IMG/VR virus record: IMGVR_UViG_3300045988_046952
Span: 1 to 64,000 of that record
Origin: a virus
Direction: 5' to 3' (one strand)
Length of the DNA stretch: 64,000 nucleotides
This document shows positions 17,761-37,394 of this stretch, in pieces. Below the pieces are notes generated by a model. The model had not been told where the DNA came from. It did not search any database and worked only from the letters and a program-made list of their open reading frames with translations. A program made the translations under genes and the position numbers. Numbering within the stretch: the first letter of the stretch is position 1; each line of letters begins with the position of its first letter.

Positions 17761-17764
17761 AAAA

Positions 17765-19481: not shown

Positions 19482-19484
19482 AAA

Positions 19485-21711: not shown

Positions 21712-21740
21712 AAGCTGTAATTATTAATTCATTACTAATG

Positions 21741-21813
21741 CACTGGATAGGGGATTCGAACCCCTGTTTACGCATCGAAAGTGCGTCGACCTAAACCACT
21801 AGTCGAATCCAGT
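21741..21813 (-). tRNA. tRNA-Glu(TTC)
   Basis: acceptor ACTGGAT/ATCCAGT, anticodon arm ACGCA-CTTTCGA-TGCGT. Confidence 0.8.
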
Positions 21814-21821
21814 ATACCTTA

Positions 21822-22142: not shown

Positions 22143-22161
22143 AAACTCTTATTAGCCAGCG

Positions 22162-22249
22162 CGGAGAGTGCTGGATTCGAACCAGCGGAACCCTTTTGAG
22201 GTTCGGAGTCTTAGCAGGACTCTGGTATAGACCACTCACCCAACTCTCC
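22162..22249 (-). tRNA. tRNA-Ser(GCT), class II
   Basis: acceptor GGAGAGT/ACTCTCC, anticodon arm GAGTC-CTGCTAA-GACTC, long variable arm. Confidence 0.8.
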
Positions 22250-22255
22250 AATCCA

Positions 22256-22316
22256 CAGAAGACTTATTTATGCTATATCAATCGCTTATGATTACCTTAG
22301 TGCTGTAAGTCTTCTT
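22256..22316. repeat. tRNA-associated hairpin repeat, copy 1 (cAGAAGACTTA ... gTGCTGTAAGTCTTCTta)
   Basis: inverted arms about 10 bp around a roughly 40-nt loop, directly upstream of tRNA-Ser(GCT). Confidence 0.55.
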
Positions 22317-22336
22317 AGAAATTCACTGTAAAAGGA

Positions 22337-24298
22337 TTACTTTACAGGAGGAAAATTATCACCATTAGCCGGTGATTCTTCTGGCTTCTTGCCAGTGATT
22401 ATTTGCTTAAGCGAATCTGCAATAGGCAAATTACGGGCAATCTCCAAGCTAGGAGCAAGATTCTTAGCCATATTAGCCATGAACTGCCCAGCAGTATTGG
22501 AGTCACCATACACAGTAACATTACCAAGCTGGATATGTTCAAACACCTTAGCGTTGGCTTCAGCAACTTCTTTCCACCTGTCGGTCATTGCATATTGAAC
22601 GATTGCTTCAGGATGCATACCTGATTTAATCATATGTTCAACTGCAAGAGCCGGAGCCATTTCCATTGCCTGTTTCTGTTCAGCTTCTGCCATTAAAGAT
22701 GCTTTCTTACCTTCAGCTTCTGCAAGAAGTTTCTTTTTAGTACCTTCAGCTTCTGCTTCCAGTTGCATCTTAGTAGCATTTGCTTTGGCTTCTGCTGCTT
22801 TCAAGATTTTAGCTGCTTCCGCTTCTGCTTCAAGAATGGCTACACTCTTAACAGCTTCTGCTTCAATTTTAGCTTTCTCTTTGGCCTTCTCGGCAGGTAT
22901 AATCACTTCGGCTTTAAGCTTAGCTTCTTCAGCTTTAGCTTTAGCTTCATTAACTTCTACCTGACGTTCCTGCTCTGTTTTAGCAACTGCCATTTGAGCT
23001 TCAACTTTGGAAGTACCAGCTACTCTTTCAGCTTCAGCTTTAGCTTTCTCTGCTTCTCCCTTAGCTTTGGAAACTTCAATAGTAGCTTTCTGTTCAGCTA
23101 CTCCTGCTGCTTTCTCTGCTTCAGCTGCCTTCTGACGGGCTTCTGATTCATACTGTGCAGTTTTAGCTTCCTTCTCCTGCTGTGCTTTAACAGTTTCAGC
23201 TTCTTGGTTTTGTGCTGCTACTGCCATACGAACTTCCTTCTCTGCTTCTGCTTCCGCCTTAGCAGCTTCAGCTTTGGCAGTAAATTCTGCTTCTTTAGCA
23301 GTTGCATAAGCTTGCTGCTCTGCAATCTTGGCAGCTCTTAATGCTTCTTGCTCGGCAACTTTGGAAGCTTCTTCAGTTTGGGCTGTAGCCACACCAATTT
23401 CACGTTCCTTTCTTTGCTCTGCAACAGCAATTTGTTGCTCCTTGTGCTGCTCGGCCAATTGAGTTTCCTTCTCTTTAGTGGTCTTAGCAATAGCAACTTC
23501 TTTCTCCCTGTTAGTTTCAGCCACTATGGTTTCTTGTTCCTTAGTAGCTGCTGCAATTGCAATCTCCTTCTCTCTCGTAGTTTGAGCTATCTGGATTGCT
23601 CCTTTCTTCTCTTCTTCTGCTATATCAGCTTGTGATTGCGCTCTTGCTTTAGTCTCTTCTTTCTTACCAAGATTATCAATATATTGAGCAGCATCTTGAA
23701 TGTCACTGATATTGATATTCATCAGGTAAAGACCAAGTTTGTTCAATTCCGTATTGATATTGTCTCTAGCTTGAGCTAGGAACTTGTCTCTGTCAGAGTT
23801 AAGCTCTTCAATAGTCATCGAAGCAATAACAAGCCTCATCTGACCATAAACAATATCTGAAATCAAACTTTCTTTAACGTCATCATCAGCACCTAGTAAG
23901 CGATTAGCAGCATTCTGCATAATCAGCGGTTCTTGGCTAATAGCAACAGTTACAGTAGTAGGAATAGTTACACGAATATTTTGAGCTGACAAAGCATTCT
24001 TCAATACAAGATTCAATTGAATCGGCTGCATTGACATTACTTCATAACCCTGTATAATCGGCCATACAAAAGCTGCACCACCATGATAAACCTTGGCAGT
24101 TTTAATTTCAACTTCTCTGTCAACCAGATTACCTTTAGCGTCGCGTTCGCTAACTTTCTCTTTGTGAGAGCCTGTTTTACCATAAACTACCAACAATTCG
24201 TCAGATTTACATTTACGGTAGCGGGATAGAATCCCAATGATAGTGATGATTGCAACTAGTACAACTACACCAACGATAATTAATGATGTCATTTCCAT
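22337..24298 (-). CDS. SPFH/band-7 flotillin-like protein with EA-repeat coiled coil (653 aa)
   Basis: N-terminal TM helix, PHB/SPFH-like region, then long KAEAEAEK-type EA-rich coiled coil as in flotillins/YqiK. Confidence 0.7.
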   Translation of the reverse strand: MEMTSLIIVGVVVLVAIITIIGILSRYRKCKSDELLVVYGKTGSHKEKVSERDAKGNLVDREVEIKTAKVYHGGAAFVWPIIQGYEVMSMQPIQLNLVLKNALSAQNIRVTIPTTVTVAISQEPLIMQNAANRLLGADDDVKESLISDIVYGQMRLVIASMTIEELNSDRDKFLAQARDNINTELNKLGLYLMNINISDIQDAAQYIDNLGKKEETKARAQSQADIAEEEKKGAIQIAQTTREKEIAIAAATKEQETIVAETNREKEVAIAKTTKEKETQLAEQHKEQQIAVAEQRKEREIGVATAQTEEASKVAEQEALRAAKIAEQQAYATAKEAEFTAKAEAAKAEAEAEKEVRMAVAAQNQEAETVKAQQEKEAKTAQYESEARQKAAEAEKAAGVAEQKATIEVSKAKGEAEKAKAEAERVAGTSKVEAQMAVAKTEQERQVEVNEAKAKAEEAKLKAEVIIPAEKAKEKAKIEAEAVKSVAILEAEAEAAKILKAAEAKANATKMQLEAEAEGTKKKLLAEAEGKKASLMAEAEQKQAMEMAPALAVEHMIKSGMHPEAIVQYAMTDRWKEVAEANAKVFEHIQLGNVTVYGDSNTAGQFMANMAKNLAPSLEIARNLPIADSLKQIITGKKPEESPANGDNFPPVK

Positions 24299-24311
24299 CT
24301 TGAAATTGGTA

Positions 24312-24833
24312 TTAATCTATGTATAATTTATTGTCTTCGTATTTACGAATCGTTACTGGCTCATTGACAGGATATGTCTTCTTATTAAGAGATACAACTT
24401 CTACTTCTCTCAATGCTCCACTTATGTTCACGGATGCCAAATGGCGCCCTTCACCTAAATGTACATAGATAATAGCAGTTCTGCCAACTAAGTTAGTCTT
24501 CGGTTCGTCTTTAGGAAGGTTCTGCAATTTCATACAGAACTTATATAAATGATACAGCATAAATACAAATACAAGACCTATAAAGAATCCTATTAACCAA
24601 TCAATCCAAGTTACTTCATAACCTAGTAATTGCTTAATAGATGTCCACCCTCCGAACCCCATGAAGAAATGGATAAATCCTTTAAAGGATACAACATCAC
24701 TGACATCAAAATCAGCATCACCATCAAAGTCTACATCGACATCGAACTCCCCAGCAACCCATGATATTATGAATTGTAGGATAAATATACCATAGGCGAT
24801 GCCTCCTAAGATATAATACAAGTTATTGTCCAT
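24312..24833 (-). CDS. NfeD-like membrane protein (YqiJ-like partner of flotillin)
   Basis: N-terminal TM helices plus C-terminal beta-barrel-like GRTAIIYVHLGEGRHLASVNISGALREVEVVSLN; immediately upstream of the flotillin gene. Confidence 0.55.
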   Translation of the reverse strand: MDNNLYYILGGIAYGIFILQFIISWVAGEFDVDVDFDGDADFDVSDVVSFKGFIHFFMGFGGWTSIKQLLGYEVTWIDWLIGFFIGLVFVFMLYHLYKFCMKLQNLPKDEPKTNLVGRTAIIYVHLGEGRHLASVNISGALREVEVVSLNKKTYPVNEPVTIRKYEDNKLYID

Positions 24834-24862
24834 CTTACTAATAATTATTTAATCTTTTAAAG

Positions 24863-24937
24863 TGGGGCGAAATGGAGTCGAACCATTATCTCTGGATTTT
24901 CAGTCCAGCGCGAACTGACCACCTGCGCTACCGCCCC
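24863..24937 (-). tRNA. tRNA-Phe(GAA)
   Basis: anticodon arm CTGGA-CTGAAAA-TCCAG; enlarged D-loop. Confidence 0.7.
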
Positions 24938-25236
24938 ATACTGCCTACACATACGTCTTCACTGGATTTTATGCTTTATTACGCCAGTTGCTTTGGACAG
25001 TCTAAATCCTTCGGTGCTGTACAGCTATACATATATTAACGAGGCCTCAACATTAATTAAGCTGCCATCGCACCTACTACCATTACTTCGTCACGCAACG
25101 TACCCTACATTCCACTTTAGGATTTTCACCTAACCACATCCTCGGCATTCCGTTTCAAGATAAAATATAACTCTGCTGAATAAGTCAAACCAAACAGGAA
25201 GATTTATGATACGTTTATACCTAAACAGCAGAATTG

Positions 25237-25310
25237 GGTGACATACGAGACTTGAACTCGTAACCCTTAGAACCACAACCTAATGCTCTGCCAATTGAGC
25301 TAATGCCACC
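25237..25310 (-). tRNA. tRNA-His(GTG) with G-1
   Basis: 8-bp acceptor including G-1:C73, anticodon loop TTGTGGT. Confidence 0.75.
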
Positions 25311-25318
25311 ATATTGAG

Positions 25319-25900
25319 TTATTGCAACTCTAATCCTTCTTTTAGTGCCCTAGTATATGCCATTCTAGCAAAGAATAGTTCAGCCACAGCCATAACTACT
25401 GGCTCTGCTAACTCTTCGGCTTCTTCAGCTCTTTCTTCTTTGGGCTTAGATTCTACATATTCTAGTAATTCCAACACAGCTCTATTAGCTTCGACCAGGC
25501 GACTATAAGCAATGCGAACTTGTTTATAGTTCTTATATCTTTCTCGATATGGTCTTATTGCATTCCATGAATATGAAGCAGCTACTATTATTGATATGGC
25601 ACATAGTACCATGAATCCGAAGGGTTCTTCTTTAGACCATGCTGAATAGATTTGATACAATACAGCACCCAAACACAGGTTTTGTCCTATAAAGAGAGAC
25701 AGTAAAAACCAATAAGCTGAAAAGGCTTTCTTTGCTTCATCAAGTAATGACTCTGACTCCTTTAGCTTCTCTTGTTCAGCTTTTAATGAGTCAATTGACA
25801 CTTCCATAGCTTCCCCTTCTTCGTCTGAACCTTTAAGGCGTTCATATTCCTCTTCACTAATCTTAGTTATTTTCAAATCTTCTAATTCTTCTCGATTCAT
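25319..25900 (-). CDS. membrane coiled-coil protein (193 aa)
   Basis: ORF track; central TM segments. Confidence 0.45.
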   Translation of the reverse strand: MNREELEDLKITKISEEEYERLKGSDEEGEAMEVSIDSLKAEQEKLKESESLLDEAKKAFSAYWFLLSLFIGQNLCLGAVLYQIYSAWSKEEPFGFMVLCAISIIVAASYSWNAIRPYRERYKNYKQVRIAYSRLVEANRAVLELLEYVESKPKEERAEEAEELAEPVVMAVAELFFARMAYTRALKEGLELQ

Positions 25901-25928
25901 TACCTTTCAATTTAAGTTCAACAATCTG

Positions 25929-26003
25929 TGGACCTGATGAGACTCGAACTCACGACCCTCTGCGTGCAAGGCAGATGCTCTAGCCAATCTGAGCTACAGG
26001 CCC
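25929..26003 (-). tRNA. tRNA-Ala(TGC)
   Basis: G3:U70 in acceptor GGGCCTG/CAGGTCC, anticodon arm TCTGC-CTTGCAC-GCAGA. Confidence 0.85.
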
Positions 26004-26190
26004 ATATTTAGCCACACTATCGTAGGGCTATCAGCTCCCAACGTCCGACTGATTACGGAAGGTTACCTACCGGTCTGATAACCTATAAAATGCACAATTA
26101 CTTAGTCATGCCCCAACTGTTCTTGTCAGTCTCCGACTCCAACCCATAGCATGTTATAGAACTCTACATGCATACCCTCCTCATTGTGCA

Positions 26191-26502
26191 CTATTTTAAA
26201 CCTATCATTTCAGCAATTTCTTCAAATGAATAATTCAGGAATAGTCTATCCATATCTGCATCAGATTTAACCCATTTAGGTCTAGGATATATAAGAGTAG
26301 GAGAATGTCCTCTCTCATGTAATCCATACACTACTTCCTTCTTACCTTTAATAAGACGAAGGTCAATATGCTCTGACATAGAAGAATAAAATCCTATATT
26401 AGAATCCTCTACATATGTAGAACCCTTCTTAGACATTACCTTGCGATAAGGTTTATACCCTTTACTAATTAAATACTCTATGAACCCAATCATGTTAACC
26501 AC
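26191..26502 (-). CDS. hypothetical protein (103 aa)
   Basis: ORF track. Confidence 0.4.
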   Translation of the reverse strand: MVNMIGFIEYLISKGYKPYRKVMSKKGSTYVEDSNIGFYSSMSEHIDLRLIKGKKEVVYGLHERGHSPTLIYPRPKWVKSDADMDRLFLNYSFEEIAEMIGLK

Positions 26503-26508
26503 TATTAG

Positions 26509-26581
<73 letters not shown>

Positions 26582-26586
26582 ATCAT

Positions 26587-26636
26587 CAGAAGGCAAATTG
26601 AACTACATGACACAGTAAAAATGCTGATGCCTTCTT
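26587..26636. repeat. tRNA-associated hairpin repeat, copy 2 (cAGAAGGCA ... aTGCTGATGCCTTCTta)
   Basis: directly upstream of tRNA-Arg(TCT). Confidence 0.55.
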
Positions 26637-26651
26637 ATATTACCCATTCAG

Positions 26652-27002
26652 TTATTCTAGATTAAGTAATTCTCTTGTCTCTTTCTTAAACTGTCTCCTA
26701 TTATAGCGTTCTCCTTTACATATAGGACAACTACAAGGAGTGCTGGTTGTTTTATAGGCAAACGTATATTTAGAATTATATAATTCTGTCCAATGTCTAC
26801 CTCTTGCTGTCTTATCTGGATTATACCAGTAGGCAGCGTGGAGTTTAATCCTAGTAATATACTTCTGGTCTTTCTTTAGGTTCCTCCACCTTTTGTTTCT
26901 TTGGATTAGTGAATCCTTCAGTTTCTCCGTTCTTAGTTCTTCCATCGTCTCTACCATTAGTGTTAATAATGTCTTGAGACGGGTTATAGCCGGTTCCAAC
27001 AA
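26652..27002 (-). CDS. basic protein with C-terminal CxxC Zn-ribbon (116 aa)
   Basis: ORF track; CSCPICKGERY; overlapped out of frame by 26851-27042. Confidence 0.4.
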   Translation of the reverse strand: MLEPAITRLKTLLTLMVETMEELRTEKLKDSLIQRNKRWRNLKKDQKYITRIKLHAAYWYNPDKTARGRHWTELYNSKYTFAYKTTSTPCSCPICKGERYNRRQFKKETRELLNLE

Positions 27003-27051
27003 ACTTCTTCATGTCCAATCCTGTTAAATTAATTCCTTTCATACGATAATT

Positions 27052-27399
27052 TTACAATCTATTAAATACTGCATGTTCCTTTAACCACTCTTGATAGAGC
27101 TTATCATCATAGTTCCCTGAATACTCCCAATGAAATCTACTACATTCTATAGTCTTTAGTAAGAACTTCATCACAGACCTTGTATTAGCCTTCTTTGATA
27201 TAGATGAAATGTAAAACTTCTCTTTATCAAAATCATAGTATCCTTGTAATACCACTCGGCGAGAATTTTGTCTATTTAAGTAAATTCTTGCCAACAACTT
27301 GGAGTTATTGTCTACATATCGAGTAGATATGAATTTATAAGCCATCTGATTCAGCCAGCAATAAAGTAATACCAACACAATAGGCATTATTGACTGCAT
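27052..27399 (-). CDS. hypothetical protein (115 aa)
   Basis: ORF track. Confidence 0.35.
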   Translation of the reverse strand: MQSIMPIVLVLLYCWLNQMAYKFISTRYVDNNSKLLARIYLNRQNSRRVVLQGYYDFDKEKFYISSISKKANTRSVMKFLLKTIECSRFHWEYSGNYDDKLYQEWLKEHAVFNRL

Positions 27400-27658
27400 T
27401 CAACCTTTTCTTGAGTTCCTTCTTAGCCTTTCTGGGCAACTTAGGATACTCTGCATATAAATCCTGTTCAGCGGCTCTGCTTGCTTCACTTAATTGCTCA
27501 AGTAAAGCATTAACATCTTCGTTAGTTTTGTAATCCTTAAGAAGGACTCTAACTAATGTGGGACGTTTCACCATTTCTCGCATTCCAGATTCGTACACTC
27601 TACAAATTTGGTTTCTACTTAACGTAGACACTCTCCTTAATTTCACTTTAAACTTCAT
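27335..27658 (-). CDS. hypothetical protein (107 aa)
   Basis: ORF track. Confidence 0.35.
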   Translation of the reverse strand: MKFKVKLRRVSTLSRNQICRVYESGMREMVKRPTLVRVLLKDYKTNEDVNALLEQLSEASRAAEQDLYAEYPKLPRKAKKELKKRLNAVNNAYCVGITLLLAESDGL

Positions 27659-27677
27659 AGTACATTCAAATTAGTTG

Positions 27678-27764
27678 AGGAAGCAGAGGGATTCGAACCC
27701 CCGGACCCCGAAGGGCCTACGGATTTCAAGTCCGTTCCGTTCAACCTGGCTCCGGCATACTTCC
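27678..27764 (-). tRNA. tRNA-Ser(TGA), class II
   Basis: anticodon arm ACGGA-CTTGAAA-TCCGT, long variable arm; 5' end overlaps the HNH gene's 3' end by 24 nt. Confidence 0.75.
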
Positions 27765-28148
27765 TTGATATTTCTTTCTATGTGTTCTAGCACTGTTCTT
27801 ATTCTTAGACTTATAAGTGTCCAACTGTGAATCACAGTTAGGACATATTAATCGTAAATTATGTTCCCAGTTGTTAGAAGCATCTCCGTTTATATGGTCA
27901 AGTATAAAGTTCAGGGGCTTGCCCTGCCATACACTATCTATACCACATATAGCACACTTGTGTTCCTGTTTATCTGCAATATAATCTCTGATACAATTTC
28001 TAAGCGTAGTTGAAACTTTACATCCAGTATCTCCAGTCTCTTTCCACTTTGCAATCTTATCTTCGTTTACTTTCTTACGGTAACATTCTTGACATAATCC
28101 AGATTGATTACCAGCACTTAATTGCTTTCCACATACGGAACACTTCAC
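27741..28148 (-). CDS. HNH homing endonuclease
   Basis: LDHINGDASNNWEHNLRLICPNCDSQ plus N-terminal Zn-finger; located inside the tRNA array. Confidence 0.7.
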   Translation of the reverse strand: MKCSVCGKQLSAGNQSGLCQECYRKKVNEDKIAKWKETGDTGCKVSTTLRNCIRDYIADKQEHKCAICGIDSVWQGKPLNFILDHINGDASNNWEHNLRLICPNCDSQLDTYKSKNKNSARTHRKKYQGSMPEPG

Positions 28149-28194
28149 ATTTAGTAATTCTAATTAATAGATAACCTATCTATTTTCTACCATG

Positions 28195-28269
28195 CACGCC
28201 CTGCACGACTCGAACATGCAACACACCCAGTTTTGGAGACAGGGGCTCTACCGATTGAGCTAAGGACGC
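28195..28269 (-). tRNA. tRNA-Trp(CCA)
   Basis: anticodon loop CTCCAAA (one stem mismatch), D-arm GCTC-AATCGGTA-GAGC. Confidence 0.6.
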
Positions 28270-28394
28270 ATCAATTTTAGATTGTGGAATCTTTAAAGAT
28301 GTAATACAGTACTACTAGCACTATAGCTCCCACAATGTAAGCACCAAAACTATGCATAATCTTATAATTTAATGTTAATAATCTAATATGTTTG

Positions 28395-28481
28395 CGTGCA
28401 GTGCAAGATTCGAACTTGCGGTGGGACTTTCGTCACGATAGATTAACAGTCTATTGCCTTCGACCACTCGGCCAACTGCAC
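28395..28481 (-). tRNA. class II (long variable arm) tRNA with anticodon GTT (Asn anticodon on a Tyr/Ser-type body)
   Basis: acceptor GTGCAGT/ACTGCAC, D-arm GCCGAGTGGTCGAAGGC, anticodon arm ATAGA-CTGTTAA-TCTAT, variable stem-loop GAC-GAAA-GTC. Confidence 0.6.
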
Positions 28482-28488
28482 ATTGATT

Positions 28489-28845
28489 TTATGTCTTTAT
28501 AAGTCCTGAATGTATTTCTCTATGACAGTTAGAACATACCAAGATGCATTTATCAAGCTCCTCTTTTACTTTATCCCAAGACCTGGTATATCCTTTAGAA
28601 GATATTCCAAAATCCTTTTGGGAAGGGTCTAAATGATGAAACTCTAAAGCATCCGCACATCTGTCATATCCACAGACAGAACATTTACCACCTTTGTACT
28701 CTACAGCCATCTCTTTAACTTTGTTACGTCTCTTTTGAGTTGCTTCTACTTGACATTTTAGACAACGCCAGCGTCCAGATTTCTCAAGAGCAAACTCTGT
28801 TTCTCCGTGTTTAGAACATATTCTTATTTCTCTTTGTCTTTCCAT
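28489..28845 (-). CDS. HNH endonuclease
   Basis: CSVCGY...EFHHLDP...CSNCHREIH. Confidence 0.65.
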   Translation of the reverse strand: MERQREIRICSKHGETEFALEKSGRWRCLKCQVEATQKRRNKVKEMAVEYKGGKCSVCGYDRCADALEFHHLDPSQKDFGISSKGYTRSWDKVKEELDKCILVCSNCHREIHSGLIKT

Positions 28846-29169
28846 AAAACAAAGATACTAAGAATTAAGTCAAACCGCAAGTTAAAAGGTGTCAACGCTT
28901 GTTAATAAACTTGCCATAATGTTTAATTGACCTATCCCGATTGCATCGGAGTTAATCCCTATGGTAAGGAACTACTCCTGTTGGTGTCCAAGCATAGCTA
29001 TTTGCAGCTATTCTAAAATACCAACGAACTGCTTTCTTAATTAACTTAAATAGTCTCATAATACATCAGTTTTAGTCAATAAATAAGTAATCTAAATAAA
29101 CCACTCTATCTTCACAGACTGAGTGGTCAAACTCGTTCTTTGACATCATGTACAATCTTAGTACATATG

Positions 29170-29241
29170 TGATTCCGCAGGGACTTGAACCCTGTTCTAT
29201 AGATTAAAAGTCTATAGCATATCCATACATGCTCCGGAATC
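29170..29241 (-). tRNA. tRNA-Lys(TTT)
   Basis: acceptor GATTCCG/CGGAATC, anticodon arm ATAGA-CTTTTAA-TCTAT. Confidence 0.8.
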
Positions 29242-29246
29242 ATCCG

Positions 29247-29306
29247 CAGAAGGCGCGTTATCAAAAACATGTAAACTGTACAATGATTAGTGCTGTACGC
29301 CTTCTT
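29247..29306. repeat. tRNA-associated hairpin repeat, copy 3 (cAGAAGGCG ... gTGCTGTACGCCTTCTta)
   Basis: directly upstream of tRNA-Lys. Confidence 0.55.
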
Positions 29307-29324
29307 ATGTTTCACTAAATCGAG

Positions 29325-29396
29325 AGTGGGCTGACGGAATCGAACCGTCCTAACCGCTTTTGCAGAGCGGCCCCTAAACCTCTCGGGCAAGCCCAC
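29325..29396 (-). tRNA. tRNA-Cys(GCA)
   Basis: acceptor GTGGGCT/AGCCCAC, anticodon arm CCGCT-CTGCAAA-AGCGG. Confidence 0.8.
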
Positions 29397-29621
29397 ATAT
29401 CAATACGACTTATGGGCTTAACTATGAAACAGGTTAATCAAATCATAAATTAAAAGTTGTTGAGTTGGTTGTTGAGTTGATTTGATAATTGTTTAGTGAA
29501 ACTATATATTATTGTGTTAATTATGGTTCTTATTAAAACTACTCTATTCTCACGAACGGAGTAGTTGTCCACATTTATTATTATGGGATTATCAGCATCC
29601 TCTCTTGGATGCTACAGGGGG

Positions 29622-29694
29622 TCGGGATGACTGGATTCAAACCAGCGACCTCGTGGTCCCAAACCACGCATTCTATCTACTGAACTACATCCCG
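29622..29694 (-). tRNA. tRNA-Pro(TGG)
   Basis: acceptor CGGGATG/CATCCCG, anticodon arm CGTGG-TTTGGGA-CCACG. Confidence 0.8.
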
Positions 29695-29700
29695 GACTAC

Positions 29701-29766
29701 AGAAGTCTCTTAGTTTAATTAAAATCATAAAATATGAAACACTTTCTTTCGTGCCGTAAGACTTCT
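29701..29766. repeat. tRNA-associated hairpin repeat, copy 4 (AGAAGTCTcTTA ... cGTGCCGTAAGACTTCTta)
   Basis: directly upstream of tRNA-Pro. Confidence 0.5.
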
Positions 29767-29796
29767 TATTCAAAGCTATTGAAAATTGTTGTATTG

Positions 29797-29869
29797 TGGG
29801 TGTACTTGGACTTGAACCAAGGACTTACACGTTATCAGCGTGTTACTCTACCACCTGAGTTATACACCC
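29797..29869 (-). tRNA. tRNA-Ile(GAT)
   Basis: acceptor GGGTGTA/TACACCC, anticodon arm ACACG-CTGATAA-CGTGT. Confidence 0.8.
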
Positions 29870-29874
29870 ATCAT

Positions 29875-29935
29875 CAGAAGACAATAGATTCATTTACTTA
29901 TGCCAACATACAGGAAAATTGCTGTTTGTCTTCTT
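29875..29935. repeat. tRNA-associated hairpin repeat, copy 5 (cAGAAGACAA ... tTGCTGTTTGTCTTCTta)
   Basis: directly upstream of tRNA-Ile. Confidence 0.55.
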
Positions 29936-29972
29936 AACATTCTGAAAATGTAGTATGTACAATGATTGTAGT

Positions 29973-30041
29973 TGCGGTCGGACGATTCGAACGTCGTCTC
30001 TGGGTTATGAGCCCAGTAAGCTACCATTGCTCCACCACCGC
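29973..30041 (-). tRNA. tRNA-Met(CAT), initiator-like
   Basis: anticodon arm CTGGG-CTCATAA-CCCAG with three G:C pairs closing the loop; overall similarity to bacterial tRNA-fMet; ends uncertain by 1-2 nt. Confidence 0.6.
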
Positions 30042-30044
30042 AAG

Positions 30045-30116
30045 TGCCCCATGTTGGACTCGAACCAACGCCATACAAGTTTAGAATTTGCTCTTCTACC
30101 ACTGAAGTAATGGGGC
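30045..30116 (-). tRNA. putative amber suppressor tRNA (anticodon CTA)
   Basis: acceptor GCCCCAT/ATGGGGC, D-arm CTTC-AGTGGTA-GAAG, anticodon loop TTCTAAA (U33, CUA, A37) on stem GCAAA/CTTGT with G:U and A:C at the ends, T-arm GTTGG-TTCGAGT-CCAAC. Confidence 0.5.
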
Positions 30117-30153
30117 GACAGAGGGTTTTACGAGATTACCCACAACTCATCAA

Positions 30154-30471
30154 CTATTCGATAATTTGATTCCACTGTTCAAGTGTAAGTTCCTTGACTA
30201 CTATGCCATTTAGTTCAAATGGAGTATATTGGTTTCCATTCTCTTCTACAAGGATTAACCATTCGTAGCCACGTTGCTTGCTATGAGTTCTAATAATCTC
30301 CTTAATGGTTTCGATGCCAAAAGGAGTTAGAATCTTCTGCCCTTCTCTGTAAAGATACCTCTTGTTGAGGTCTTCTAAATCCTCTAATGTGGTTAAATGA
30401 GGATTAGGGTTCTTAGTGATAACTACATGGTCATCTCCTACACTAACATAATAATCTCGATTGTATATCAT
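30154..30471 (-). CDS. hypothetical protein (105 aa)
   Basis: ORF track. Confidence 0.4.
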   Translation of the reverse strand: MIYNRDYYVSVGDDHVVITKNPNPHLTTLEDLEDLNKRYLYREGQKILTPFGIETIKEIIRTHSKQRGYEWLILVEENGNQYTPFELNGIVVKELTLEQWNQIIE

Positions 30472-30770
30472 TCTCTTACTAATTTAAGTTTCTTGAACAT
30501 GCGACCGTCATCTTGTAATGCGATTGCTGTTAATTGATTGCCAAGGTCTGGTTCATAGAATGAAGAATAGTCCTTATTAACTAAGTCCAGTCTTACTTTC
30601 CATTTGTCCAAGTCAGCATATAAGTAGATTAAGTAGTTATTATTCCAATCCTGCTTAGGATGTTCTAATAACCACTGTGCTACTGCATGACCTCCTTGTA
30701 CACAACCATAAACTGCATCAAGCTTCTGGTCTATTAGCACATACAATCTCTTCATCAGAATATGTATCAA
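30468..30770 (-). CDS. hypothetical protein (100 aa)
   Basis: ORF track. Confidence 0.4.
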   Translation of the reverse strand: MIHILMKRLYVLIDQKLDAVYGCVQGGHAVAQWLLEHPKQDWNNNYLIYLYADLDKWKVRLDLVNKDYSSFYEPDLGNQLTAIALQDDGRMFKKLKLVRE

Positions 30771-31056
30771 TCAGTGAATCAACTCTTTCTCGGAAATACT
30801 TCTCTCCACTATACATCTTAGAATAACCACACCAACCTTGAGTTTCAAGTGATTTCCATTCTTTGATAACTTTAGCTAGATACTCATTCATAGCTTCTCC
30901 GATTAGTTTATGCTTTAATATGTAATAAGCTACATACATTGCATGTAATATTCCTCTGTTGTAATAAACTGATGAGCAGTCATTAATATTCTTAGCTGCT
31001 TTCTGTGCTTTTACTAAATTCGCGATTTCTTGTTTAAATTGTTTAATTGTTGCCAT
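30718..31056 (-). CDS. hypothetical protein (112 aa)
   Basis: ORF track. Confidence 0.4.
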   Translation of the reverse strand: MATIKQFKQEIANLVKAQKAAKNINDCSSVYYNRGILHAMYVAYYILKHKLIGEAMNEYLAKVIKEWKSLETQGWCGYSKMYSGEKYFRERVDSLIDTYSDEEIVCANRPEA

Positions 31057-31145
31057 GATAGTTAATTGTTAATAAGTTAATAAATAAATTGCCTTAATTA
31101 ATAATCAACTATCTTATGGTGGCTTGTAAGTAATCTACCGCATAA

Positions 31146-31442
31146 TCATTTCCCTTTAATTTGTTTACACATGTTAATAAACTCATCATCCGATTCACAT
31201 ATAATCGGATTCGTTTCCTTGAGATACATCTCCAGATAGGCTTCTTTAGACAAATCGTCCACGTCATCCGGATACACACCATGTACATCATATGACATAT
31301 GAGAACCCCAGCAACTAAGCCAATCAGCATCCTCAAATGTAGTACATATACACACACTTAACCCAGCATCCTCTAGTTTCTTACGAAGTTCTGGAGTATT
31401 CTTCTTAATAAGACAGTGTTCACTCATGGATTTAATACACAT
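31146..31442 (-). CDS. hypothetical protein (98 aa)
   Basis: ORF track. Confidence 0.4.
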   Translation of the reverse strand: MCIKSMSEHCLIKKNTPELRKKLEDAGLSVCICTTFEDADWLSCWGSHMSYDVHGVYPDDVDDLSKEAYLEMYLKETNPIICESDDEFINMCKQIKGK

Positions 31443-31762
31443 AAACCACCTTTCTCGGAATCTCTAAGCACATACTTAATACCTGGAATACCAGGACCTG
31501 ATACCTTATAAATGGTTAGTTCGTTAATAAATTCATACTGCACTCTGTTGATTTTATAATCTCCATTAGTAGCAGCAGACTCATTAATTGATGCTTTACT
31601 TGTGGTTGCAAATAATGCCAAGAAGGTAAATACTCCACATAATCCACCAATAACACCTGCCTTAAATGATGTCTCTTTCATAATCTCATCTATTATTAAT
31701 AATGAGCGGGATAACAGAATTGAACTGTCATCTTCAGCTTGGAAGGCTGTTATAATAACCAT
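31424..31762 (-). CDS. small membrane protein (112 aa)
   Basis: ORF track; TM segment. Confidence 0.4.
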   Translation of the reverse strand: MVIITAFQAEDDSSILLSRSLLIIDEIMKETSFKAGVIGGLCGVFTFLALFATTSKASINESAATNGDYKINRVQYEFINELTIYKVSGPGIPGIKYVLRDSEKGGLCVLNP

Positions 31763-31863
31763 TATACGAATCCCGCAGTTTACTTCTACTATTCTCTCGA
31801 ACCATAGAAGGGTTTGTCGAGTTTGACCTCAACAGATATTGTATTTAATTATCGCAGTGTGAG

Positions 31864-31946
31864 TGGGCATGGTAGGATTCGAACCTACTCAGCCATAGGC
31901 AACGGTTTTACAGACCGCCCCAGCTCTCCAACTCTGGCGCATACCC
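31864..31946 (-). tRNA. tRNA-Tyr(GTA), class II
   Basis: acceptor GGGTATG/CATGCCC, anticodon arm GCGGT-CTGTAAA-ACCGT, 13-nt variable arm. Confidence 0.8.
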
Positions 31947-32196
31947 GAATCACACAATCCATATTAACTGTGAATTGTGAGTGCAAAGGTAATGAATCTT
32001 TCCCACATATAAAAGTTAATATGTATTAAATACGATAGAAGTTTGCTCGGTATTAAACTAAGCTCACATATTCTCTCGAACCGATGAGCTTAGTAGTTAT
32101 TCAACAATTGCAGATACTTTAACTCGTAATAATGACTATGAGTCGAGATAGAAATGACACTGCATATGTTGAAAGAATCATATTAATAAAATGGTG

Positions 32197-32270
32197 TAGA
32201 GATAACCAGATTCGAACTGATGTTCTTCTAAAGATTGACTTTAGCTGTTCTACCACTGAACTATATCTCT
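32197..32270 (-). tRNA. non-canonical tRNA-like (anticodon loop GTCAATC, CAA; or 6-bp stem with 5-nt loop)
   Basis: good acceptor AGAGATA/TATCTCT, D-arm and T-arm; anticodon arm CTAAA-GTCAATC-TTTAG atypical (G32, U37). Confidence 0.4.
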
Positions 32271-32433
32271 ATCCAGTCCCTATGGAATCATCCAATAAAT
32301 TCCCACCTAGTGTTACTAGATATGCACAAAGATTACTATACCAAATATGCGCTCTTCTCCATGCATAATGAAATCTATCTTCTATCCAATCAGAACATTA
32401 ATTCAACTATTAAATAAACGGTGCGCGAAATAC

Positions 32434-34128
32434 TTAGACCTTCACAGGCTTCTTCTGCACGCTTGCATTCTTCTTGACAACATCCTTCTCTAGAATCATC
32501 ATATTAAGCAACTCTTGATTCATAGCATGCTTAAAGATGTCTCTAGTGGTTTTAGGCACCTGGAACCTCTTCTCTCCAGTAATAAATGAGGATGTTGAAT
32601 TATTAAGTCCATTTACTAAGAAGCAATTTGACACTCCTGGAACCAAAGCCACATTAGGTCTTCCCTTATATGCTAAAGGAACTCTCCAAATGGTAACTTT
32701 GAATGCTCTTACAAATTCCTTACTGAAATTTGCTTTAAGCAGTCTTTGCTTAAATTCCACGAATGCTTGGTTGTTCAACTTGGTAAAATATGTATGGTTA
32801 GTAATTACCACACAGCCTCTAGGGAACTCTCCTTCATCCACACCATAATCTTCTTTCATTTTACACAGCATTTCTGCTATATTAATAATAGAAGGATTCT
32901 GGCATAATGCTTCTTCTTTGTCAGATTTCCATTTCTCAATGACATTCTGACCTTTGAACTTACGTAGAACCATGTTATCTTCTAACACGGCATAGGAGTT
33001 CTTGAATATTGTAGGAAGTAATTCAGAATGATATAAAGCATATGCTTTACCCAAACTGTAAGCAGATGTTTCGCTATTCTCTATCTCACCATTAGCAGAA
33101 TGACTTATATCTCTTACTACCAACAACGGAGCTACTCTATTGCGTTTAGCATTATCAACGAATACGTTGAAACTTGCATTAATAGAAGTTTCCATAAATT
33201 CTGGAATCTCTTCGGCAATTTTATCCAGTCCATATGGTTTGAATAAAGTATGTAGAAATCCGCTATTAGAGGGCTTCTTACGGTTCTTCAACCAGTTCTG
33301 ATACTTCTCTTTAAGACCTTGATGTTTGAGGAATTTAGAGCCTACTAGCTGTGCCAGCGCCTTTCCAGTAACAGTGTCAAAATCAATTTCCAAGAATTTC
33401 TTTTGACTGATTAACTGCTGCCATTGGGCTGCTTTCCCGCTATTCTTCATCTTCCTATATTTACGATAGGTGGAATAGTCTCCTTCGTCCTTAGGTTTAC
33501 CATAAAGGCCTTCCGCCAAGAATTTGGCTACTGTGTTACGTGCTTTTGCCTCATCTGTCTTACATGCAACACTGGAACGAACACGAGGAAGATACTTCTT
33601 TACTAAATCACATGTCTGACCATTAGCAAGACCTGCAAATATGACTTTCTTGAAGAAGTCCCAATCCAATCTGTGCTTAAAGCCATGGAGTTGAACATCT
33701 AAAGCCATCATAGTAATGAAATCTTTCCAGCATCCAGCTGCTGCAAAATAAGCAATGTTGGCATGGAATGTGGGTTTGTGATAGATTGCCAACCACAGCA
33801 TCCTCATTATACCTTCATTCTTCAAACCTTCTCCTTGCTGTGTATCAAGCTGTATAACTCCTTCCGGGGTAGTTATTCTACATTTACGAGTTATCATTCT
33901 CGTATATGCAGTAAACTTGGTACATAGTAATGGATTAGCTTTCCATAAAGGATACATATCTTTAGCCACTTGCACGTAGGTACGTGGCTGAAGACATTTC
34001 TTAAGATTAACAAACTGGTCTATGAATAACTGATTATTATCCACAAACTTAGGTTTATTCTCATCCCGCCTTTGACGTGCGGCATTAGGGTAAGGCCTCC
34101 TTGGCCTTTGTGCTCCTTTCATTTCCAT
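32434..34128 (-). CDS. vWA-domain protein (564 aa); TROVE/Ro60-like architecture possible
   Basis: MIDAS DxSxS in PLLVVRDISHSANG after a roughly 330-aa N-terminal domain; size and architecture resemble Ro60; untested. Confidence 0.5.
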   Translation of the reverse strand: MEMKGAQRPRRPYPNAARQRRDENKPKFVDNNQLFIDQFVNLKKCLQPRTYVQVAKDMYPLWKANPLLCTKFTAYTRMITRKCRITTPEGVIQLDTQQGEGLKNEGIMRMLWLAIYHKPTFHANIAYFAAAGCWKDFITMMALDVQLHGFKHRLDWDFFKKVIFAGLANGQTCDLVKKYLPRVRSSVACKTDEAKARNTVAKFLAEGLYGKPKDEGDYSTYRKYRKMKNSGKAAQWQQLISQKKFLEIDFDTVTGKALAQLVGSKFLKHQGLKEKYQNWLKNRKKPSNSGFLHTLFKPYGLDKIAEEIPEFMETSINASFNVFVDNAKRNRVAPLLVVRDISHSANGEIENSETSAYSLGKAYALYHSELLPTIFKNSYAVLEDNMVLRKFKGQNVIEKWKSDKEEALCQNPSIINIAEMLCKMKEDYGVDEGEFPRGCVVITNHTYFTKLNNQAFVEFKQRLLKANFSKEFVRAFKVTIWRVPLAYKGRPNVALVPGVSNCFLVNGLNNSTSSFITGEKRFQVPKTTRDIFKHAMNQELLNMMILEKDVVKKNASVQKKPVKV

Positions 34129-34467
34129 CTCTTGTTAAATTTATTGTTATGAGAGTCTTTCTTTATTCTAAACAATAAACAAGCGGCATTACGGCAATTG
34201 GACATGCGTTAATCCGCTCGCCACTTACAGACCGTAATGCACACTTGACCAGGCAGGAAAGAGGTTTGCTTGGTTACCTGCCCCACAATATTGATTTGCA
34301 TAGTGGGGCTACGAGGATTCTCTCTACTCGTGATGCTATAAATCGTCTTTTGACGCAAGCACAGGTTTCAACTCTTTAATATAGCCTTTAAGTCACAGAT
34401 GCATTCTAGACTACATCTGCTGGTTCTTCAGACCAAGTTTGCTACCACTACTCGTCAATAGTGGATT

Positions 34468-35163
34468 TTACGGTATCAGATAGTCCACACGAAGGTCTAC
34501 CGTCTCTTCGTTTGCTTCTAACACCACAGTCGTCGAAAGAATGTCAGGATTGTCAGCCGTAGTTATCATACCCACAATATCATGTGGGGATTCCAAGTAT
34601 AAATAACCTCTACCGTCCCAAGCTGGAACATATCCGCCTCGTAGAATGTTTCGAGACGGAATAGACTTATAATAATAGTGTGCTGGCCGGTAGTGAGCGA
34701 ATGATACGTTAATAGCTGATTGGTGTGTGCCTATGGTAAAACCACCCAGGACTGTTGCCAGTCTCATCACCTTACTAACGTATTTTGAATCGCCTACTAC
34801 ATCTAGTCTTATGTTCAAGCCTGGATAGTAGAATTTAGCAACTCTCCTGCTTATATCCTTCAACGTTTGAAGAGATTGAAATTCAGCAACATCAACATAG
34901 TCTTTCTCCGATTCAGAACTACCGAAGATACAATTGATTGGTATTGGCTGATTAGCTTCAATACATTCTTCCAAAATAGTGATTGCTTCGGACGGAATAG
35001 CTTCATTACCAAGTCTGATTCTCTTAGTCCCATATAAGATATGAGCTATAATCTGACTAAGTGGCAATGATAATTTCTCCTTAGCAAAGTTGCTTTCCAA
35101 ATCATATAGATATTGGCAAATGTGTGCACTGAATGGCGTGTTCCCTTGTACTGTAAACTTCAT
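34468..35163 (-). CDS. hypothetical protein (231 aa)
   Basis: ORF track. Confidence 0.4.
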   Translation of the reverse strand: MKFTVQGNTPFSAHICQYLYDLESNFAKEKLSLPLSQIIAHILYGTKRIRLGNEAIPSEAITILEECIEANQPIPINCIFGSSESEKDYVDVAEFQSLQTLKDISRRVAKFYYPGLNIRLDVVGDSKYVSKVMRLATVLGGFTIGTHQSAINVSFAHYRPAHYYYKSIPSRNILRGGYVPAWDGRGYLYLESPHDIVGMITTADNPDILSTTVVLEANEETVDLRVDYLIP

Positions 35164-35657
35164 ACTATCTGTTCAACTGTTATTAATTTAGTGATTCTAT
35201 AACCTCTTGATTTCAGGAATTTGATTGCTTCCATTTCAGCTTGTGTAATAGGAATCAGATGTTTGTCTTCTTCCGCTTCTGTAACAGCTTCCATTTCAGC
35301 TTGTGGCTTAGGTTTAGGAGGTGCTACATAAGTGCCAGCTTTAATAGCCATTCTCTTAGCATATGCATCTCTCTGTATCTTAGCCATTTCTTTCCTACTG
35401 ATAGTTATCAATTCAATGACTCTAGTCTTATACAAAGGGCCATGTTCTTTCCACATAAATCCTTTAGTATAGATAGCACCGTCAGGTTCAATCACTCCCT
35501 GCTTACGCAAAACAGCCATGAAGTTCTCTGGCCTTGGGAAGCCATTCTTCTTCAAATCCTTGACTACATCTGTAATCTTAAAAGGCCCAGGATTCATTGT
35601 CTTTACCGTGTTAAAAATCCGAACGATGTCATCGTCGGATATTGACCTCTTTCCCAT
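35160..35657 (-). CDS. hypothetical protein (165 aa)
   Basis: ORF track. Confidence 0.4.
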   Translation of the reverse strand: MGKRSISDDDIVRIFNTVKTMNPGPFKITDVVKDLKKNGFPRPENFMAVLRKQGVIEPDGAIYTKGFMWKEHGPLYKTRVIELITISRKEMAKIQRDAYAKRMAIKAGTYVAPPKPKPQAEMEAVTEAEEDKHLIPITQAEMEAIKFLKSRGYRITKLITVEQIV

Positions 35658-35683
35658 AATTTCAATAACTTTTAGTGAAACAA

Positions 35684-35965
35684 TTACTCTTTATATATTC
35701 TAATTCGAGATTTACGCAGATGTACACGCATTCGTTTAACCTCGGACAGAATCCAATTACGTCTGCATTGATGTAACCATGCAATTACATCTTCGTCAAA
35801 TAATAATTCTTGACCACAGTAGTATGTGCCACTGTAGTAAGTATCAAGCTTTGGTCTTAATATGTCATGAGGACTATCAGTAACTATGTATTGATAATCC
35901 TCACCTCTTATTAATTTTAGCTTCTCTGACTCTTTACGAAGTTTCTTTAATAACTTTGCTTTCAT
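35684..35965 (-). CDS. basic hypothetical protein (93 aa)
   Basis: ORF track. Confidence 0.4.
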   Translation of the reverse strand: MKAKLLKKLRKESEKLKLIRGEDYQYIVTDSPHDILRPKLDTYYSGTYYCGQELLFDEDVIAWLHQCRRNWILSEVKRMRVHLRKSRIRIYKE

Positions 35966-35981
35966 TTTAATTACTTAAATG

Positions 35982-36547
35982 TGGACCTAGAGGGAGTCGA
36001 ACCCTCGTCCAGACAACTCTCATTAATAAGATTACGTGTGTCTCTATTTTATTACATCAGCTGTTGAGTTCAGCATGTAGGTAGTTTTACTAAGAAGCCG
36101 AGTGTTAATTCACCAATTACGTCTCCCTCGTAGGGCTACGACTTAGTTGTTCACAAACTACCAAACTGGGCTTGACCGAACGGTCACTCCACCACTCCAT
36201 TTACGTTGGAGAACGTTTCTATTTGTAACCCATAGATAGGTAGTGGAGATTTCAGCTTTACTAACCTTTGGCTTTCAAGTTAATGCATCTAAGCTTCACT
36301 GTAACCTGTAGGTACTATGACTCTTCCCCGCAGGTCTCGTTATAGCACTTAGATACAAACCTCTTCTGTTTCTAGGTCTCTCCAATTAACCCGACTTAGA
36401 GCTAAATTAATAGATAAGCCAGCAGCTTAGGCTGCCATTCTGTTGTAGTCGATTTCAGCAACTATTGTTTGCATCATTATTAAAGAGTTGGTGCCAACTC
36501 TACACGTCTTACTAACTTGTAATCGCCTGTCAAATCCAGGTAGGCCC
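35982..36547 (-). ncRNA. ssrA: tmRNA (ssrA), tag peptide AEIDYNRMAA
   Basis: 5' GGGCCTACCTGGATTTGACAGGCG (compare E. coli GGGGCTGATTCTGGATTCGACGGG); 3' GGACGAGGGTTCGACTCCCTCTAGGTCCA (compare GGACGCGGGTTCAACTCCCGCCAGCTCCA); acceptor GGGCCTA/TAGGTCC with G3:U70; GCU resume codon at RNA positions 89-91; ORF GCT GAA ATC GAC TAC AAC AGA ATG GCA GCC TAA at 36427-36459. Confidence 0.75.
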
Positions 36548-36856
36548 TTATAATTCTATTACTGTTCCTGGTTTTAGTATCCTAACTCGTATCTTGGCAG
36601 ATTTGTTAAGTACTATGTTATCAGGGATTGAATTGCTAGCCTCGCCAACTACGTATAGGTTGTTAACAATCCTAATCACGACTGTACCTGGAGTTACAAA
36701 CCCATTGTACCATTCAATTACTTCTGCCAATTCACCATGTCTCATTTCTATAGGATGAACAAGGTAACTAGCGCGTTTTACAATTTTTACCATAATTCTA
36801 AGTATTAAAAGTGAACTGCCAGTATCCTCCTGTGCTACATTAAGTAGCGTACCCAT
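36548..36856 (-). CDS. hypothetical protein (102 aa)
   Basis: ORF track. Confidence 0.4.
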   Translation of the reverse strand: MGTLLNVAQEDTGSSLLILRIMVKIVKRASYLVHPIEMRHGELAEVIEWYNGFVTPGTVVIRIVNNLYVVGEASNSIPDNIVLNKSAKIRVRILKPGTVIEL

Positions 36857-36892
36857 TACAGACTTAGTAACTTACGAGCTACTTTGTTCCAT

Positions 36893-37246
36893 TTAAAATG
36901 GCAAGTTTCCTTCATGTTTCATCCAACTATAAACTACAATTTCATAATCTGGAAAATCGTTAGCAAGTTTAACACAACTGTCAAACGATAACTCTGTTAT
37001 GCATATAAGAGGGTAATCATTGTCAAGCCATTCTCTAATTACATCCTTATCAGGAATATGCTCATCCAATGACCATTTAAGCTCACGTTCAAGTCTTTCA
37101 CGTATTGTATTCAATTTAATATGGTCATGCGTTCCATATATAACATTTAATATGTAATACAATAAATGGCTATTGAACTTATCAACATCGCTAATAAGGA
37201 TATGCCTCTTGGCATTCCTTAGAGAATTAACTGCGTTTTGATTCAT
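36893..37246 (-). CDS. hypothetical protein (117 aa)
   Basis: ORF track. Confidence 0.4.
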   Translation of the reverse strand: MNQNAVNSLRNAKRHILISDVDKFNSHLLYYILNVIYGTHDHIKLNTIRERLERELKWSLDEHIPDKDVIREWLDNDYPLICITELSFDSCVKLANDFPDYEIVVYSWMKHEGNLPF

Positions 37247-37326
37247 AAATTTACTAATTAAAAGCCCAAGTGTGTTTCACAACATGACTGGGCAAGCCTA
37301 AACTATACAAAACTTTAAAATGATTG

Positions 37327-37394
37327 AAGAGGATGGGAGATTCGAACTCCCACTACTAGTTGTAACTAGCCTTCTACCATTAAACTAATCCTCT
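37327..37394 (-). ncRNA. truncated tRNA-like element (68 nt; anticodon arm replaced by 5-bp stem plus tetraloop)
   Basis: acceptor AGAGGAT/ATCCTCT, D-arm GTTT-AATGGTA-GAAG, CTAGT-TACA-ACTAG hairpin, T-arm GGGAG-TTCGAAT-CTCCC. Confidence 0.45.

Follow-up and report, generated by a model that had tools for sequence, protein, structure and literature searches.

A conserved amber suppressor tRNA in a phage genome without UAG recoding

A minus-strand gene in the 64,000-nucleotide viral sequence analysed here (positions 1 to 64,000 of IMG/VR record IMGVR_UViG_3300045988_046952, hereafter the window) is a bona fide tRNA with the anticodon CUA and a canonical cloverleaf, and it resides in a phage for which TAG is a true stop codon and no genome-wide recoding occurs. 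We consider it probable that this gene is a functional orphan amber suppressor, carried in the early/middle-strand tRNA array of a standard-code, Zeta-type Bacteroidales phage, and that its benefit lies outside the decoding of the phage's own genes. It would be an orphan in that no conserved phage ORF appears to need it for decoding. Many gut phages rely on suppressor tRNAs as the switch to another genetic code for their late genes, and a strongly selected suppressor with nothing to decode is a puzzle already flagged in the literature. The locus is neither new nor evidence of selective read-through; it offers a clean example, with a single invariant gene, no confounding recoding and recoded sister clades for comparison.

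Results

A canonical tRNA with a CUA anticodon

ARAGORN called a tRNA with a CTA anticodon at 30044-30116 on the minus strand, labelling it 'Pyl' as it does every CUA tRNA. The Rfam tRNA model RF00005 matched 30045-30116 on the same strand over the full model, with 62.7 bits against a gathering score of 29 (E = 3e-11). The gene and the features around it are the following.

3215..37394, minus strand: 27 tRNA genes and one anomalous tRNA-like gene (ARAGORN, Rfam)
30045..30116, minus strand: tRNA gene with anticodon CUA, the amber suppressor (ARAGORN; Rfam RF00005; sequence; relatives)
30082..30084, minus strand: anticodon C34-U35-A36, TAG on the plus strand (sequence; ARAGORN, gene position 33)
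29973..30041, minus strand: tRNA(CAU), 3 nt downstream of the suppressor (ARAGORN, Rfam coordinates)

The suppressor gene is 72 nt long, does not encode CCA and ends in the discriminator A73. Read on the minus strand, its acceptor stem GCCCCAU/AUGGGGC is Watson-Crick paired at all seven positions and is followed by U8-A9, a D arm CUUC-AGUGGUA-GAAG with a 4-bp stem and a 7-nt loop, and a single A. The anticodon arm GCAAA-UUCUAAA-CUUGU carries G27.U43 and A31.C39 at the two ends of its stem, with U33 on one side of the anticodon and A37-A38 on the other. A 5-nt variable loop (AUGGC) and a T arm with a 5-bp stem (GUUGG-UUCGAGU-CCAAC) complete the molecule. The cloverleaf, the conserved T-loop and D-loop and the score above the Rfam gathering threshold are those of a canonical elongator tRNA. 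The 7-nt anticodon loop with U33, C34-U35-A36 and a purine at 37 is that of an amber suppressor, position 31-39 being an A.C mismatch. An earlier, sequence-only reading of the window had proposed a CUA tRNA here, without giving its strand, and had described a perfect acceptor stem, standard D- and T-arms, the loop UUCUAAA and terminal G:U and A:C pairs in the anticodon stem; each of these details is confirmed by the minus-strand sequence, and the anticodon also by ARAGORN. Because ARAGORN and Rfam agree, the sequence is invariant in 19 of 19 close relatives and compensatory changes are found in its orthologues, the gene is no chance resemblance to a tRNA.

An assignment as tRNA-Pyl was rejected. 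That class is recognised by a variable loop of 3 nt, an anticodon stem of 6 bp, a small D-loop, a single base joining the acceptor and D stems, and the genes pylS/pylBCD. The window suppressor has five nucleotides in the variable loop, seven in the D-loop, U8-A9 between the stems and a five-position anticodon stem, and no PylS-like or other pyl domain was present among the 20 window proteins scanned with Pfam. The CUA anticodon is the sole likeness.

Phage identity and genome data

The TerL (58509-60785) and portal (61016-63217) proteins match phage families, TerL matching phrog_6681 and being about 30% identical to cultured and uncultured crAss-like phages. The nearest GenBank record, the 117-kb human-gut contig MT835470.1, encodes a TerL 97.6% identical to that of the window; it aligns to 48275-64000 at 97.5% and runs 100 kb further. 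Window and contig were joined into a 164-kb composite, in which the 100 kb beyond the window represent a 97.5%-identical relative and not this genome, and up to about 20 kb of the genome may lie outside it. Contigs of relatives in IMG/VR measure 146-185 kb. GC content is 36.4-37.5% and the number of tRNAs 27 (window/composite). By these features the window fits a crAss-like phage of the published Zeta group, for which crAss-like TerL and portal, a genome of about 160-190 kb, 20-30 tRNAs, GC of about 35-37%, a CTA tRNA and no suppression are characteristic. Genome size, a GC of 36-37%, the number of tRNAs, the giant late ORFs and the TerL insertion that some relatives have make 'clade 8' of PMC12386605 the closer fit, by features rather than by sequence comparison.

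In many otherwise identical relatives (among L110-L118 and others) the TerL match spans 3271 nt rather than 2274 nt, and a LAGLIDADG ORF adjoins a shortened TerL in L061. This is consistent with a mobile intron or homing endonuclease, absent from the TerL of the window.

The tRNA array and its neighbourhood

ARAGORN found 28 tRNA-like genes in the window, every one on the minus strand between 3215 and 37394 and interspersed with small ORFs on that strand; the suppressor is member 24. All amino acids but Val are represented in the set of 27 tRNAs, and no further tRNA was found in the relative's 100 kb beyond the window. The neighbouring tRNA(CAU) has three G-C pairs beside its anticodon loop and is thereby initiator-like; it lies 3 nt away by the Rfam coordinates, as the sequence-only reading had stated, and is probably co-transcribed with the suppressor. 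The pairing of the two genes is retained in all lineages, diverged ones included, despite two very different CAU alleles.

Between 28194 and 32270 (minus strand), the window and L001-L021 and L030 have swapped tRNA alleles in a manner resembling cassette replacement, in genomes that are about 98% identical. The Lys, Pro, Ile, Tyr, Asn, Phe, Ala and CAU tRNAs each occur as two to five very different alleles per position; the CUA suppressor and the His tRNA are invariant, and Arg-UCU has one variant, which differs by one base (18+1). In L002, L007, L016 and L017, tRNA(CAU) gives way to a longer CAU tRNA-like allele whose D region is enlarged and which ARAGORN missed. The swapping may reflect recombination, or pressure from tRNA-targeting host defences. 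Two atypical tRNAs of the array, at 32196-32270 and 37326-37394 (both minus strand), have an AGAG... acceptor in common. The one called 'Leu-CAA' combines a short variable arm with G32 and U37, and L007 shows a compensatory change in its stem. The anticodon loop of the other is 6 nt long in the window, where relatives show GCG or ACG.

Several other elements lie on the minus strand among or near the tRNAs. A tmRNA at 35979-36547, missed by ARAGORN, matches the full Rfam model RF00023 with 91 bits, exceeds it by about 200 nt through insertions and has the tag frame AEIDYNRMAA followed by UAA; a phage tmRNA near an amber suppressor could matter if read-through yields non-stop ribosomes. A full-length RAGATH-34 RNA (34358-34464; 120.6 bits against a gathering score of 60.7) is located between the tRNA array and the tmRNA. 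Inside the array, 22337-24298 encodes a 653-aa SPFH/Band-7 protein (Pfam PF01145, E = 1e-24). An adenylosuccinate synthetase homologue is encoded at 16693-17760 (Pfam PF00709, E = 5e-33); its best PHROG is annotated as PurZ-type, which raises the question of 2-aminoadenine DNA.

Invariance and covariation of the suppressor

All 19 of the 19 genomes compared in the species-level cluster have one and the same suppressor sequence. Across about 17 relatives there are no variable columns in its 73 nt, compared with 12% in the surrounding 4.5 kb; the neighbouring Lys, Pro, Ile, Tyr and CAU tRNAs have 25-41 variable columns each, owing to very different alternative alleles. A pattern scan of IMG/VR recovered only three suppressor alleles, in 18, 8 and 1 contigs, and all 27 contigs have CUA. 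Blastn against GenBank phages gave no match to the suppressor tRNA or its neighbourhood.

Analysis of four diverged orthologues with RNAalifold revealed double (compensatory) changes in 11 of 20 base pairs, distributed over all four stems. Between alleles such changes lie in the D, anticodon and T stems; C10-G25 of the D stem, for instance, is exchanged for G10-C25, and the tertiary pair G19-C56 covaries to A19-U56. Through such stem changes CUA is retained in the orthologues of two diverged lineages, and C34-U35-A36-A37-A38 is strictly kept in four independent lineages of CUA tRNAs in the phage family. The mismatch at 31-39 is preserved as a mismatch in three lineages, and one allele (the one in 8 contigs) has C33; both could lower decoding efficiency. 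Judged from these alignments, the CUA anticodon and the cloverleaf are evidently under purifying selection across three diverged lineages. Because CUA has been kept through compensatory changes in diverged orthologues, the gene appears to be a selected UAG decoder.

TAG is a stop codon in this phage

TerL, portal and the 1251-aa ORF are intact under the standard code with zero in-frame TAG. Treating TAG as a sense codon lengthened no real gene in the window, and neither TAG nor TGA occurs in frame in the late ORFs of 2970, 2281, 1594, 1556 and 1529 aa in the 100 kb of the 97.5%-identical relative. The stop codon is TAA in 119, TGA in 42 and TAG in 19 (about 10%) of the 180 genes crudely called in the composite. 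In-frame TAG is likewise zero in all relatives with at least 74% protein identity around TerL, among them lineages with the two other suppressor alleles.

More distant relatives served as a positive control. L130-L161, with 42-61% TerL identity, carry 7-47 in-frame TAG per 20-kb locus, or in-frame TGA; in L133, 17 in-frame TAG fall in TerL and 24 in portal. In the recoded relatives 21-28% of TAG sites align to Gln in the window proteins, where the background is 4.4%, and in those with in-frame TGA this codon aligns to Trp at 47%. Code 15 (TAG-to-Gln) would show as in-frame TAG codons in conserved genes (TerL, portal, MCP, RNAP) that align with Gln in relatives; none is present in TerL, portal and the 1251-aa ORF of the window or in the 100 kb of the 97.5%-identical relative. 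With zero in-frame TAG here against those of its recoded relatives, the window phage is a standard-code member of a family rich in TAG-to-Gln and TGA-to-Trp recoding; that both are common in the crAss-like family has already been published. The sequence-only reading had seen no evident genome-wide recoding, a judgement that holds for TerL, portal, the 1251-aa ORF and the 100 kb of late genes. Neither Pfam on 20 window proteins nor a GGQ-motif scan detected a release factor, and no synthetase gene was found by these searches.

The TAG at 51335-51337 is judged an ordinary stop

The same reading had proposed that the suppressor mediates selective read-through at an in-frame TAG at 51335. Two features are concerned.

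51335..51337, minus strand: TAG stop, the proposed read-through site, judged an ordinary stop (sister-lineage comparison)
50780..51322, minus strand: independent 180-aa gene with its own conserved start and a modular, fibre-like architecture (homologue search)

The upstream ORF (51763-51335) and the downstream ORF (51322-50780) are in frame, with the TAG and 12 nt between them, and suppression of the TAG would fuse the two into a longer structural protein. The junction is identical in 24 of 25 close relatives and altered by a single spacer base in the other; as the relatives sharing it are only 94-99% identical, this conservation says little. An in-frame relation is expected by chance in 1 of 3 cases, and no other convincing pair of TAG-joined ORFs was found in the window or composite. 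The downstream ORF has an independent ATG, and homologues down to 44-57% identity retain its N-terminal sequence M-[TS]-N-[KR]-IATEQY. When the hypothetical fusion protein was used as the query, nearly all homologues were stand-alone 180-aa proteins. With such homologues and a conserved start, the downstream ORF is an independent, modular gene.

Sister lineages show a different junction. L061, L062 and L064 have TAA at the end of the upstream ORF, and because their spacer measures 11 nt the two ORFs do not share a frame; in L065 the upstream ORF is absent. In the window itself, a G10 tract at 51702-51711 (minus strand) frameshifts the upstream ORF. The tract ranges from G6 to G11 in 30 relatives (G9 in 12, G10 in 8); G9 or G6 keeps the frame with the upstream start (MESTNELV...), and G10 breaks it. 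This pattern resembles phase variation by strand slippage in a fibre-like gene, or else assembly noise at a homopolymer. A true fusion exists in one relative, L060 (1117-1743 of Logan contig ERR14037817_8512), where CAG (Gln) replaces the TAG, ACG replaces the downstream ATG, most of the upstream ORF is deleted and one 208-aa ORF joins its 23-aa remnant to the downstream ORF. This is compatible with insertion of Gln; as a single case it is a curiosity.

Where other window genes terminate in TAG, their orthologues in diverged lineages often have TAA at the corresponding position, and no TAG stop conserved between lineages as a read-through site was found. Programmed read-through would leave a stop conserved in diverged relatives and an extension lacking an independent start; neither is seen at 51337. 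Given the downstream start and the sister lineages with TAA and shifted frame, the proposal of selective read-through is not borne out, and we assign it the lowest probability of all the explanations considered in this study.

The 180-aa protein has a conserved N-terminus of about 55 aa that is joined in relatives to unrelated C-terminal domains of about 300 aa (P0091, P0093), and its homologues at 44-57% identity include different C-terminal domains, an architecture typical of receptor-binding or fibre proteins. Immediately downstream of its gene come an 80-aa ORF and the 1251-aa protein with a glucosaminidase domain. The ORF that stops at 51337 has a C-terminus that is hypervariable even between near-identical relatives; a diversity-generating retroelement (DGR) was rejected as the cause, no template repeat having been found.

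Stop codon usage and context

The phage's use of TAG was compared in late and other genes. Stops in the late block are TAA in 40 genes, TGA in 4 and TAG in 1 (89% TAA). TAG thus ends 1 of 45 late genes, compared with 18 of 135 others (Fisher p = 0.047). A TAG-specific depletion was nonetheless rejected, because TGA is equally depleted, which makes this a general TAA bias. Back-up stops are not enriched behind TAG in the composite: their median distance is 14 codons, against 7-9 after TAA or TGA. TAG followed by A occurs in 0 of the 19 TAG stops of the composite, though TAGA is the commonest TAGN genome-wide; avoidance of this suppression-prone context as a property of the clade was rejected, since the sister lineage has it in 11 of 18. 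Usage and context, in late genes as elsewhere, accordingly show no TAG-specific adaptation. With TAG ending about 10% of genes, efficient suppression would extend about 10% of the phage's own proteins; the 1251-aa protein would gain 9 codons and the PurA-like protein 37.

Suppressor scaffold and possible charging

The CUA tRNAs of the recoded relatives and of the L014/L015 lineage are Gln-derived, with U1-A72 and the D-arm GGUGUAAUGGU; in 487 of 500 bootstraps Gln is the isotype nearest to the L014a suppressor. For the window suppressor, Gln is the nearest isotype in 0 of 500. Its scaffold has G1-C72, C2-G71 and C3-G70 and shows neither U1-A72 nor a Gln-like D-arm. On this comparison it appears clearly to be of a different tRNA lineage than the Gln-type suppressors of recoded relatives. 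Among the paralogues the tRNA-Arg(UCU) family comes closest, with a bootstrap share of 47-74% across the three alleles, and the two share the unusual A19-U56 variant as well as a UUCUAA hexamer, which lies one position later in the loop. A relationship to the tRNA-Arg(UCU) scaffold is thus suggested, if weakly supported.

In E. coli, the Arg identity elements are C35 and A at position 20, and amber suppressors on such scaffolds are charged with Lys or Gln via U35. The window suppressor has neither C35 nor A at position 20. The 5' half of the suppressor has no match in 185,579 species genomes and gave no bacterial source. Its 3' half and acceptor strand match bacterial tRNAs of Glu, Thr, Lys, Arg and Leu, and the acceptor stem is therefore not diagnostic. 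A search with the 564-aa neighbouring protein, as a route to the tRNA arrays of recoded relatives, returned close relatives only.

Discussion

How the suppressor might act

The following course would account for a functional orphan suppressor. The tRNA would be transcribed with its array and receive CCA from a host enzyme; with A36-A37-A38 it is also likely to undergo i6A37 modification. Charging would then fall to a host synthetase able to tolerate or recognise U35, whose E. coli counterpart would be GlnRS or LysRS, and the charged suppressor would compete with RF1, so that UAG is partly read through during infection. Most likely the phage benefits in some way other than the decoding of its own genes. 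One option is that UAG termination in the host or in a competitor is perturbed, to which the late phage genes, 89% TAA, would be largely immune; another is that the phage is kept compatible with the TAG-recoded gene pool of its relatives.

A more specific proposal, which we put forward only tentatively, is that the suppressor is an effector rather than a decoder: an Arg(UCU)-like scaffold whose anticodon loop has shifted register by one base, charged by a host synthetase, perhaps with Lys or Gln, that would deliberately weaken UAG termination in the infected Bacteroides cell. If so, proteins of the host or of competing phages could be crippled, or genes captured from TAG-recoded relatives expressed, and the TAA-terminated late genes, possibly together with the phage's own tmRNA, would shield the phage.

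Alternative explanations

The heavy TAG recoding of sister clades invites the view that the suppressor is an intermediate in a code change, pre-adapted to TAG-to-Gln, or a relic left after reversion, with no present function; acquisition of a suppressor before recoding has been proposed in PMC7886860 and by Borges et al. (bioRxiv 10.1101/2021.08.26.457843). A functionless gene should decay, however, and this one is the most conserved element of its part of the array. CUA has been kept in three lineages diverged to about 75% protein identity while zero in-frame TAG were gained, and the scaffold is of another lineage than the Gln-type suppressors of the recoded relatives. With this evidence, and the same counter-argument made in PMC12386605, we regard an intermediate or relic as unlikely. 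A suppressor could also buffer nonsense mutations, lowering the cost when CAG, TGG, GAG and similar codons turn into TAG in a large and AT-rich genome; the idea appears in Borges et al. (bioRxiv 10.1101/2021.08.26.457843), and L011 does carry an E-to-TAG change in an otherwise 99%-identical 112-aa ORF. Yet among the in-frame stop polymorphisms of close relatives TAA (about 6 cases) outnumbers TAG (1 case). A recurrent W-to-TAG change at 27356, in seven relatives, was rejected as an example, being upstream of the real start (M19) and synonymous in the overlapping gene 27658-27335. Buffering is in our estimation very unlikely.

We give less credence still to a non-translational suppressor, serving as a decoy for tRNA-targeting defence or in some other non-decoding role, or reading another codon through a modified wobble base. 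The cassette-like replacement of other array tRNAs hints at pressure from the host, and one would not usually expect the 31-39 mismatch or the C33 allele in a tRNA that decodes efficiently. Set against these points are the fully canonical structure with its high Rfam score and the strict retention of C34-U35-A36-A37-A38 in the four CUA lineages, and we know of no defence system that targets a CUA tRNA. A functional suppressor whose benefit lies outside the phage's own decoding is the reading we retain.

Comparison with known systems

Phages recoded at TAG (code 15) and carrying amber suppressor tRNAs were reportedly described by Ivanova in 2014. Gln-type amber suppressors of such crAss-like and other gut phages are treated in Peters 2022 (PMC9523058) and in Borges et al. 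(bioRxiv 10.1101/2021.08.26.457843). They resemble that of the window in having CUA and A37-A38, in being phage-encoded and in coming from the same phage family. They differ in U1-A72, in the Gln-like D-arm and in the tens of in-frame TAG per late gene that accompany them, whereas the window suppressor combines G1-C72, C2-G71, C3-G70 and another D-arm with a genome devoid of in-frame TAG.

The classical suppressors of E. coli (supE, supF and engineered CUA derivatives) likewise present CUA on a normal elongator scaffold, and as with them, charging of the window suppressor would be expected from host synthetases reading U35. The E. coli suppressors arise by a single anticodon substitution in a cellular tRNA; the nearest paralogue here, with weak support, is tRNA-Arg(UCU).

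The closest counterpart is Zeta clade 8 (PMC12386605), whose members have Bacteroides hosts, GC of 35.4-36.9% and 20-29 tRNAs, all with a CTA suppressor and none with suppression. The window phage shares with it the giant RNAP-like late ORFs, the introns in TerL of some relatives, and a single CTA suppressor without amber suppression in any ORF; we found no substantive difference between them. Suppressors without reassignment had been noted in crAss-like phages by Yutin et al. (PMC7886860), so the occurrence of a CTA suppressor without suppression in standard-code Zeta crAss-like phages is already published (PMC7886860, PMC12386605). In PMC12386605 the 'incipient recoding' of PMC7886860 is disputed, and the suggestion made there is that the suppressor acts on the host. 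To this our analysis adds the invariance of the suppressor amid allele swapping, its non-Gln scaffold, the lack of a conserved TAG stop and the lack of TAG-specific avoidance.
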